Assembly: GCA_017461055.1 (NCBI GenBank) | Contig: JAFTZI010000061.1 | Location: 1 to 55,775 of the forward strand | Length of the DNA: 55,775 nt | DNA from: Clostridia bacterium | GTDB taxonomy: Bacteria > Bacillota > Clostridia > Oscillospirales > CAG-272 | Direction: 5' to 3' | Part shown: piece by piece, positions 11,911 through 13,950 of the stretch | How positions within the stretch are numbered: position 1 is the first letter of the stretch | How the letters are laid out: each line of letters opens with the position of its first letter | Notes under the pieces: generated by a model | The model's input: the letters and a program-made list of their open reading frames with translations, nothing else | Told to the model about the DNA's origin: nothing | Database searches by the model: none | Program-made: the position numbers and the translations under genes

Positions 11911-11939
11911 TAGACAAATTGTTAAAAATATGGTTTAAT
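11911..11939 (+). promoter_or_regulatory. sigmaA promoter of the XRE gene
   Basis: TAGACA-17 nt-TTTAAT with extended TGn. Confidence 0.55.
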
Positions 11940-11972
11940 ATAATTGCAAGGACTAAGCCGAAAGGAGAAAAA

Positions 11973-12716
11973 ATGAGAAATATATTTGCCGCTCAATTTA
12001 AGGAATACAGAAAAAAGCTGGATATTTCACAGGAGGAAATAGCTGAAAGGCTGAATGTAACCTCTCAGGCAGTATCTAAGTGGGAGTGCGAAAGATCCTA
12101 TCCCGATGTGGAAATGCTTGTAAACATTGCAAGCCTGTTTCAAATAAGCTTAGACGAGCTTATTTTGGGGAAAGCGGACTCTTGTGTTTCCAATATTCCT
12201 AATGATAATAAGCTAAGATTGGTGCTTTGCAGAGGCACAGAGGTAATAGATTCTAAGGAGACCGATGTCACTATGAGAATTATGCTTGATACAGAGTTCG
12301 AAAATATGGAAGTCCTTGGTAATGCTAACATTTATGGCGAGGTGAAAGGTAATATAAGTGCAGATGGCAGTGTAAATTGCGACTCTGTGCGTGGCAATGT
12401 AAGCGCGGGCACAAGCGTAAACTGTGACGAGGTTTTAGGAAACGTTACTGCGGGCGCAGGAGTTAACTGTGACGGAGTAGACGGTGATGTTAACGCCGGC
12501 ACAAATATAGTTTGTGATGATATAGGCGGAAATGTAAACTGCGGACTTACCATTCAATGTGATAACATTTCGGGCAGCGTTACCTGCGGAATGACTATCA
12601 CCTGCGACACCATTGACGGTGACATTTTAGAATGCAACGGAGATATTCACGTAAAAACCTTAAATGGCAAGGTTAACAAATGCGAAAAGACAGTTTATTT
12701 AAAGGACGACAAGTAG
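11973..12716 (+). CDS. XRE-family HTH regulator with a C-terminal Cys-containing 16-aa tandem repeat (beta-solenoid-like)
   Basis: ISQEEIAERLNVTSQAVSKWE..YPD HTH; repeats G(N/D)V-x-AG-x2-VNCD; AAGGAG RBS supports ATG 11973 rather than 11919. Confidence 0.85.
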   Translation: MRNIFAAQFKEYRKKLDISQEEIAERLNVTSQAVSKWECERSYPDVEMLVNIASLFQISLDELILGKADSCVSNIPNDNKLRLVLCRGTEVIDSKETDVTMRIMLDTEFENMEVLGNANIYGEVKGNISADGSVNCDSVRGNVSAGTSVNCDEVLGNVTAGAGVNCDGVDGDVNAGTNIVCDDIGGNVNCGLTIQCDNISGSVTCGMTITCDTIDGDILECNGDIHVKTLNGKVNKCEKTVYLKDDK

Positions 12717-12737: not shown

Positions 12738-12836
12738 TGCAGTGAAATCGAGGCTGTGCCTCGGTGAAATTCGCCCAAGGTCGAGTGAAATGTTGCAGAG
12801 ACGCAACGTGAAATTTTTGCTAAAGCAAAAGTGATA
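12738..12836 (+). repeat. GTGAAAT-linker/hairpin array (family D), copy 2
   Basis: GTGAAAT at 12742, 12764, 12785, 12808 and GTGATAA at 12831, each separated by a hairpin. Confidence 0.8.
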
Positions 12837-12854
12837 AGTAACAAACACAAAATT

Positions 12855-13276
12855 GTAGGGGTCGACGTCCCCGACGACCCGTTATTAATCACGAATTTAT
12901 TCGTGCATATCATCACGCAATTTTGCGTGTATATCATCAATGGGTTAAGCATTGTATATCATCAACACGTATGTGTTGTATATTCCTGTAGGGGTCAGAC
13001 CTTAGACGACCCGTTATCGATCACGCATTTTTGCGTGTATGGAATCACACTTTTGTGTGTATGGGCAAGTACCCGGAGACCCGTAAATGCTCTCTCCCTC
13101 CGTCTTGCTTACGCAATCCACCTCCCTCGTCAGATGGAGGCTTATGTAGGGGTCGACGTCCTCGACGACCCGTTATTAATCACGAATAAATTCGTGATTG
13201 ATTTTCGGGCGATTCGTGAATCGCCCCTACAAATTGGGTAACATTCACATCGTAGGGCGGTGGCTTGCTGCCGCCG
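12855..13276. repeat. Cluster of GTAG-type REP palindromes (family A)
   Basis: GTAGGGGTCGACGTCCCCGACGACCCG at 12855 with variants at 12988 and 13146, an inverted GTAG palindrome at 13206-13230, and GTAGGGCGGTGGC..GCCGCCG at 13252. Confidence 0.8.
12888..13064 (+). repeat. GTATATCATC-linker/hairpin arrays (family E)
   Basis: Linkers at 12905, 12929, 12954, 12978 (period 24-25) and 13037, 13059; every spacer is self-complementary. Confidence 0.75.
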
Positions 13277-13314
13277 AAATAACAAGGTACTACAAATTAA
13301 GTTTAACACATCAA

Positions 13315-13511
13315 TCAAGCCTTGCGCAAGACAAAGCAGATTCTTGCACAAGGCATACTGCGTAATCGGCAAGCCTCGGAATGACAGATTCGTTTTGCGT
13401 TTTCTCTATTGTTAAAAAGACGGACTCATTTTACATTTTCCCTGTTGTCATCCTGAGCGAAGCGAATGGATCTTTGTTAAGCTTGTCGTATGGGCGAGCA
13501 TTGGTCGTCCG
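13315..13511. repeat. GTCAT(C/T)CTGAG..GATCT palindromic repeat pair (family C) plus a degenerate GTAG REP
   Basis: Reverse-complement homolog of 48290-48385 with two insertions; GTATGGGCGAGCATTGGTCGTCCG at 13488. Confidence 0.75.
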
Positions 13512-13527
13512 TTTTTCTATGTACAAC

Positions 13528-13557
13528 AAAAAAGACCGTTTTGAAACGGTCTTTTTT
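13528..13557 (-). terminator. Intrinsic terminator of rplJL (bidirectional)
   Basis: AAAAAAGACCGTTT-tg-AAACGGTCTTTTTT. Confidence 0.85.
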
Positions 13558-13578
13558 ATATGTTGGCTTAAATTTAAA

Positions 13579-13950
13579 TTACTTAACCTCTGCCTTAGCG
13601 CCAGCGTCTGTAAGCTGCTTAGCGATATCGTTAGCCACATCCTTAGATACAGCCTCCTTGAGTGTCTTTGGAGCGCTCTCAACGAGTTCCTTTGCTTCCT
13701 TAAGACCAAGGCCTGTGATCTCACGAACAACCTTGATAACGTTGAGCTTAGAAGCGCCTGCCTCAACAAGTACAACGTCAAACTCTGTCTTCTCCTCAAC
13801 AGGAGCAGCTGCAACAGCAGCACCAGCAACTGCAACAGGAGCAGCGCTTACGCCAAATTCTTCTTCAACTGCCTTTACAAGGTCAGCAAGCTCAAGGATT
13901 GTAAGAGCTTTGATTTCTTCAACAATATTTGTAATCTTTTCGTTAGCCAT
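13579..13950 (-). CDS. rplL: 50S ribosomal protein L7/L12
   Basis: [39 protein letters not shown]. Confidence 0.98.

Follow-up and report, generated by a model that had tools for sequence, protein, structure and literature searches.

A one-armed, gene-less hairpin-linker array fused to REP elements in a Clostridia bacterium, and its relation to a PF05635 gene cassette

The window analyzed here is a 55,775-nucleotide stretch of contig JAFTZI010000061.1 of a Clostridia bacterium, whose assembly (GCA_017461055.1; genome of 2.3 Mb, 195 contigs) is 90% complete. The array under study lies in the gap between an HTH_3 (PF01381) gene on the plus strand (11919..12716) and a convergent gene on the minus strand (13579-13950), which we take from its sequence to be rplL. 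The former is a host gene outside the element, and its product carries a fused GDVNAG-type beta-solenoid-like repeat (weak FapA match, E = 2.6e-4). The latter, together with its terminator hairpin (13528-13557; 13528..13950 for both), provides the anchor for comparison of orthologous sites.

Two runs of hairpins alternating with a constant 10-nt linker were found on the plus strand of this gap, and every sequence named in a preceding sequence-only reading was recovered at its position. Run 1 (12888..12982) starts with ATC (12888-12890), continues with three units of a hairpin and the linker G(C/T)ATATCATC, and ends with a fourth hairpin and GTATA. Its hairpins occupy 12891-12904, 12915-12928, 12939-12953 and 12964-12977, with three full linkers at 12905, 12929 and 12954 and a period of 24/25. 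Run 2 (13020..13064) consists of ATC, a hairpin (13023-13036), the linker GTATGGAATC (13037-13046), a second hairpin (13047-13058) and GTATGG. The linker consensus is G(C/T)AT(ATC/GGA)ATC; run 1 has the linker of the MSKNYLL-type sub-clade of PF05635 proteins and run 2 that of the MAKRNLL-type sub-clade. The runs are real. When 12850-13240 is folded as DNA (z = -8.1 vs 100 shuffles), every spacer forms its own hairpin, closed by a linker-derived C-G pair, and 8 unpaired bases separate the stems.

Both runs are headed by GTAG-tagged REPs. The REP of run 1 is of type A (12855..12881, +), which also occurs inside RAYT-like ORFs of two metagenome loci (L227 and L293), and run 2 is headed by a variant (12988..13013, +) and closed by a decayed REP half (13064..13084, +), the usual end of such composites in the source genome. 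An unrelated repeat module follows (13090..13141, +), of the kind that flanks the DUF559 gene of the source genome on contig C130. Next to it is a REPIN-like, head-to-head REP dimer (13146..13230), composed of a type A REP on the plus strand (13146-13172) and a type B REP on the minus strand (13206-13230), which share one copy of a hairpin (13182-13195). This hairpin had been described as following the REP at 13146; it is indeed present, but its sequence is that of hairpin 1 reverse-complemented, and it equally opens the arm of the minus-strand REP. The same gap (13252-13390) also contains, at 13252, a GTAG REP of a third type and, ending near 13388, a TGTC-tagged palindrome on the minus strand. 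Another TGTC-tagged palindromic repeat lies at 13446..13473 (+), and 62 matches of its type are present in the genome; we infer it to be CGTC-like (PMC3733652, in part).

Upstream of run 1, a GTGAAAT linker-hairpin array belonging to a sister family was observed at 12740..12837 (+). The idea that it is a parallel array with a different linker was borne out, with the correction that it represents the Gut-1 motif of Rfam (RF01706; 53.9 bits vs a cut-off of 50), and such linkers precede other PF05635 proteins. Like Gut-1, which is known from gut Clostridia (Weinberg et al. 2010; PMC2864571, in part), the window array places constant short linkers between hairpins of free sequence, and one Gut-1 copy lies 50-150 nt upstream of it; unlike Gut-1, it has a different, 10-nt linker and evidence for DNA and for a gene cassette. 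The Rfam scan detected Gut-1 only at 12740-12819 and not in 12888-13064, the best Rfam match of the array having an E value of 0.34, and the array falls short of the gathering threshold for membership of Gut-1. Most array clusters (25 of 34) are found no more than 500 nt from the end of a contig, and no public contig spanning the window array locus was found, so that the exact order of modules described above is based on a single assembly.

The proposed genome-wide count revealed 47 runs on 26 contigs of the source genome, consistent with the suggested modular, many-copy repeat system. These runs contain 169 spacers (51 distinct) in conserved order, and 43 of them are preceded by a GTAG REP or REP half. 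A two-linker pattern yielded 66 matches in this genome vs 0 for the reversed control. All 38 multi-linker runs with a parseable start begin with ATC, and the parsed ends are mostly G(T/C)AT. The window array is one of ~45 near-identical gene-less copies in the source genome, and the summed contig depth of the array vs a unique gene was ~30-60x in three DNA runs of one study, a value that is not a copy number and may come from the source data themselves. The spacers are not the distinct variable units that they had seemed to be, as five of the six in the window recur 4-18 times in the genome.

Variation among distinct variants is concentrated in the loops (31 of 132 positions) vs the stems (13 of 224). 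A compensatory A-T/C-G swap separates hairpins 1 and 2, and the third hairpin of run 1 carries a private stem-breaking base (1 copy vs 14 of the intact form). Compensatory stem changes, which had been raised as a check on the hairpins, were seen, but only two of the 10 changed stem pairs within the source genome are compensated, the others being G-T (five) or broken (three). The number of units also changes, as had been anticipated: units have been duplicated or skipped at the linker, and tandem duplications of single units are present.

Outside the source genome, the two-linker pattern was detected in 40 of 50 genus genomes (0 to 90 matches per genome; control matches 0). Many of the arrays in these relatives have a mirrored form and follow tRNA genes, and several are found ahead of a gene of the PF05635 family (Pfam match, E = 5e-19). 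The full cassette, which is common in gut Clostridia, begins exactly at the CCA end of a tRNA or tmRNA. A long hairpin comes first, then the left and right arms, which are on opposite strands, then a -10 hexamer and finally the PF05635 gene. Its left end is at CCA in 42 of 44 tRNA-linked loci, which include 11 isotypes and tmRNA, and one hairpin sequence is shared behind 8 tRNA isotypes. The -10 hexamer lies 3' of the right arm in 61 of 63 loci, and 36 of 64 genes overlap the start codon that follows them. Among 50 loci, we found no regular right end and no target duplication of at least 20 nt, and two have a second array at the right end; two loci contain an 18-19-nt copy of the tRNA end. A flipped left arm was seen in 0 of 301 genomes of the order, cassette-bearing or not, so the cassette differs from an invertible DNA switch, in which both orientations would be expected. 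Separately, the left arm is flanked in 45 of 58 loci (L346-L425) by an inverted repeat of 10 nt, with covariation among three sequence classes.

The window copy shares the clade-specific linker and the hairpin spacers with this cassette, and it has no mirrored arms, no upstream tRNA CCA end and no downstream gene. Being one-armed and gene-less, it is a derivative rather than a full cassette. Solo arms begin with (A)ATC and end with GTAT, which is within the linker.

To relate linkers to proteins, we used a tree of 91 PF05635 proteins of the genus (94 rows recovered from ~140 matches, less a duplicate, a false hit and a broken fragment). A single clade of 23 members (support 99) contains every row with this linker, and all of its members carry it, 21 with three or more copies and 2 with two; the label changes 2 times on the tree vs 19.2 in shuffles. 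The clade is divided into 14 proteins with ATATCAT and 9 (support 99) with ATG(G/T)(A/C)AT, unmixed, and both linkers occur in the window. Approximately 10 linker types each track their own protein clade (25 changes vs 64.6 in shuffles), in a sample in which 20 loci had been chosen as expected cognates, some linker labels of other classes are wrong because one pattern was loose. As gene and array are adjacent, shared descent alone would yield such a match. The four-helix-bundle PF05635 family, which was among the partners listed at the outset, is accordingly matched to the linker by clade and is a candidate binding protein. The two sister sub-clades, whose linkers differ in three central bases, constitute a natural specificity pair, for which a direct test of binding can readily be designed.

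Arrays of the Gut-1 type, with GTGAA(A/G)T, lie upstream of other PF05635 clades. We also observed that ~10 other clades of the family (L052-L140) have upstream repeats of their own, some of them hairpin arrays and some plain heptamer tandems without hairpins. A scan of GTDB with the clade alignment confirmed at least 500 relatives among the 600 candidates listed, and those listed belong to Acutalibacteraceae, Oscillospiraceae, Ruminococcus and other Clostridia. Of the best 80 of these at least 500 relatives, 65 had a full flank, with a mirrored array in 55, a partial one in 8 and none in 2; these 80 loci are 88-96% identical to the query and are therefore not independent.

An intact cognate PF05635 gene was not found in the source assembly (90% complete). 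Contig C169 ends within a cassette left arm that is nearly identical to those of gene-bearing cassettes, and one public contig extends 567 nt further; the cognate gene may lie beyond the end of C169. Genome G014 (94% complete, 41 matches) likewise has no intact cognate gene, and arrays are present in 19 of 28 genus genomes without the gene vs 21 of 22 with it. Moreover, G056 has 90 array matches and no match to PF01797, the RAYT family. Blooms of copies hence do not strictly track an intact RAYT or the cognate gene.

The predicted structure of the PF05635 protein (pLDDT 95) matches 2RLD, 2GSC and the Avd protein 4DWL, with TM scores of 0.80-0.87. It shares the Pfam match and the fold with the 'S23 / 23S rRNA intervening sequence' proteins (2RLD, 2GSC) and with Avd of diversity-generating retroelements (DGRs; 4DWL, 8UB7), whereas the cassette genes lie outside rRNA and are preceded by mirrored linker arrays that track the protein clade. 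Avd is a pentamer in which all five protomers contact one RNA stem-loop (bioRxiv 2023.10.23.563531, in part), so that an RNA ligand is conceivable here as well.

The arrays might then act as RNA in the manner of Gut-1, their hairpins in tRNA read-through or 3'-UTR transcripts being bound by the Avd-like protein, which would control termination or stability. We consider this unlikely. It would agree with the RNA stem-loop of Avd, with the same architecture in Gut-1, which is listed as a non-coding RNA candidate (PMC2864571, in part), and with the positions of arrays behind tRNAs and terminators. Stem pairs of the left arm are also suggestive, with 22 G-T vs 7 A-C, as is the covarying inverted repeat that brackets this arm. 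The loops, however, point elsewhere. Hairpins were predicted for 155 of 164 distinct cassette spacers vs 9.1 in shuffles, and GNA triloops outnumber their reverse complements on the linker strand by 17:3 in the left arm and 17:0 in the right arm, though the arms are on opposite strands and the spacers counted are related by descent. The bias of the right arm thus falls on the strand opposite to tRNA transcription. In addition, GNA triloops and GNYA loops outnumber GNRA loops, and UUCG loops are absent from the cassette spacers. GNA mini-hairpins are unusually stable in DNA and far less so in RNA (PMC13037366, in part). Because of this greater stability in DNA and the bias to the linker strand in oppositely oriented arms, the loop sequences appear to favour folding of both DNA strands. 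Furthermore, the gene has its own -10 hexamer downstream of the arrays, which also argues against action as RNA. Speaking against DNA, folding energies from ViennaRNA showed no preference for the linker strand, and the loops in the window are T-rich, not GNA.

The link to REPs had been regarded as intrinsic to the repeat unit, which did not hold beyond the source genome. The pattern of REP plus array, built on the first hairpin of the source genome, matched this genome only among 50 of the genus, and the linker was found behind a type A REP in 0 of 110 metagenome loci. Solo arms of other genomes are attached to repeats of different families, and some have REPs next to them, arranged in another way. 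The window copy is a one-armed derivative fused to a RAYT-type REP. It resembles REP/BIME/REPIN elements associated with RAYT (TnpA-REP) (PMC3733652 and bioRxiv 2022.05.22.493013, both in part) in forming dispersed intergenic mosaics, in the GTAG-tagged REPs at 12855, 12988, 13146 and 13230 (minus strand) with their head-to-head dimer, and in a REP (type A) that recurs inside RAYT-like ORFs. It differs in that the hairpin-linker arm is cargo of foreign origin, associated with a gene of its own and free of REPs in relatives, and in that RAYT is broken here. The window array behaves like a passenger of the REP/BIME kind, and Gut-1 is its sister.

No match to PF01797 was obtained in the source genome. 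Broken RAYT pieces were noticed on two contigs. On C80 (G000:C80:4933-5282), an N-terminal half with a frameshift stands next to an inverted C-terminal piece, and C44 (G000:C44:4396-4668) has a C-terminal half. The broken RAYT on C80 contains an internal type B REP followed by a junction nearly the same as that in 13 composites.

Of 29 relatives compared at the orthologous site, 27 lack this linker in the 520 nt that follow the rplL terminator (two of these loci are short). Two relatives carry a solo arm whose hairpins differ; a mirrored array of the Gut-1 type occurs in one, and a mirrored array with a third linker in one. By this comparison of orthologous loci, which had been proposed, the window mosaic is specific to its lineage, at a site used by several array families. 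The locus shows the capture of such arms into REP mosaics. In different species, three linker-array families occupy this same position (L429, L453, L448 and L450).

These arrays could also be neutral selfish repeats that gene conversion and replication slippage have spread among intergenic hubs rich in hairpins, with the PF05635 gene merely linked to them. Blooms in genomes without the cognate gene or RAYT fit such an account, and so do solo arms that join different repeat families in each genome and the single-unit tandem duplications. It nevertheless seems improbable to us, given that the ~10 linker types follow the protein clades, that linkers stay constant while stems are replaced, and that the left end of the cassette is precise at many different tRNAs.

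It is very unlikely that the array belongs to a retro-element in which the Avd-like protein and a reverse transcriptase acting in trans copy it onto tRNA 3' ends. Insertion exactly at CCA of any isotype and the fold of a DGR accessory protein would suit this explanation, but no PF00078 reverse transcriptase was found in any of five genomes with large blooms (79-94% complete, including the source at 90%), in which the cassette also differs from a diversity-generating retroelement, and the loop bias is DNA-like.

Least credible of all is a mini-CRISPR or guide array with units processed into guides, as the sequence-only reading had compared the locus with CRISPR: the regular alternation of a short constant repeat with variable units is similar, but the spacers are inherited hairpins of 11-15 nt, self-complementary, neither unique nor acquired, and recur in fixed order at dozens of small loci, the linker has 10 nt vs ~24-48 bp for a CRISPR repeat (PMC3733652, in part), and the neighbours are an HTH gene and rplL with no cas gene, which together rule out a CRISPR array. 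The true CRISPR-Cas of the source genome is a separate locus with cas1 and an array of 36-nt repeats (period 66) running to the contig end (G000:C3:41905-44335).

With regard to a partner enzyme, the nuclease that had been postulated was not found. None of the five small GIY-YIG or DUF559 genes of the source genome has the linker in its 300-nt flank, and an array was nearby in 1 of 10 such loci in relatives. Among 30 Y1-transposase loci of the genus, two linkers were present in the flanks of none and one linker in three. IS200/IS605 elements, PATEs and integron attC cassettes have hairpin ends that are likely read as single-stranded DNA, and they lack a regular target duplication. The present cassette resembles them in both its hairpin ends and the absence of a regular target duplication, as well as in accretion at one site (contig C127, see below); it differs in its target, the CCA end of many tRNAs, and in that neither a Y1 transposase nor an integrase gene was seen in it.

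Taken together, we propose, with a probability of about 0.6, that the window array is a gene-less, one-armed copy of the PF05635 cassette repeat, fused to REPs and spread to ~45 places, and likely a folded single-stranded DNA docking site for the matching ring-forming protein. Its identity as a gene-less arm is well supported. In single-stranded DNA, each spacer would fold away and draw the constant linkers together, and the pentamer could then make repeated, sequence-specific contact with the gathered linkers. Since the folded spacer would serve only to bring linkers together, it may be any sequence as long as it is a hairpin. Arrays would gain and lose units through slippage or recombination at the linker. 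For docking of the PF05635 protein on single-stranded DNA, the odds are about even. In the source genome, an arm may have been captured beside the internal REP of a RAYT gene and then copied as a REPIN/BIME-like passenger by the RAYT HUH enzyme, which is now broken; this part of the mechanism is weaker, and whether RAYT drove the spread is close to an even bet. The copy in the window, in a gap between convergent genes, is probably a selfish passenger. The locus is valuable because it links a repeat to one particular clade within a widespread protein family whose function is unknown. In the literature searched, to which subscription journals mostly did not belong, no description of the linker family or of the cassette was found.

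A bolder and more doubtful possibility is that PF05635 proteins and their arrays form an undescribed class of mobile cassettes without an enzyme of their own. Here, a pentameric Avd-like ring would read a clade-specific linker code on folded single-stranded DNA, deliver the cassette and its cargo to any tRNA CCA end, and spawn gene-less arms that hitch-hike on other repeat families. No enzyme gene was found in the cassette. If the proposal is true, a single function would be shared by the Gut-1 motif, an orphan protein family and several repeat families that lack an explanation. The data suggest that Gut-1, rather than being a stand-alone RNA, is the same kind of DNA repeat.

At tRNA-Met/tRNA-Glu(TTC), several relatives have the GTATGGAATC cassette, and the cassette of the source genome at this place has another linker and another protein. 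On contig C127 (L051; G000:C127:955-4248), these tRNA genes are followed by a PF05635 cassette with the ATGAAG linker, another gene (cupin-like by eye) and the remnant of a deleted GTATGGAATC cassette, which lies ~800 nt beyond the ATGAAG-linker cassette and has the same terminator. It looks as if cassettes had accreted here in a polar manner, at the end of a single tRNA. At three further loci (L031, L033 and L034), gene-less mirrored arrays are arranged in tandem with a different cargo gene after each, which resembles a cassette array behind a tRNA. The pattern was also matched 35 times on viral contigs; most of these matches are plain tandem repeats or chance, and four, on contigs L330, L339, L340 and L345, have hairpin spacers and are true hairpin-linker arrays of this family.
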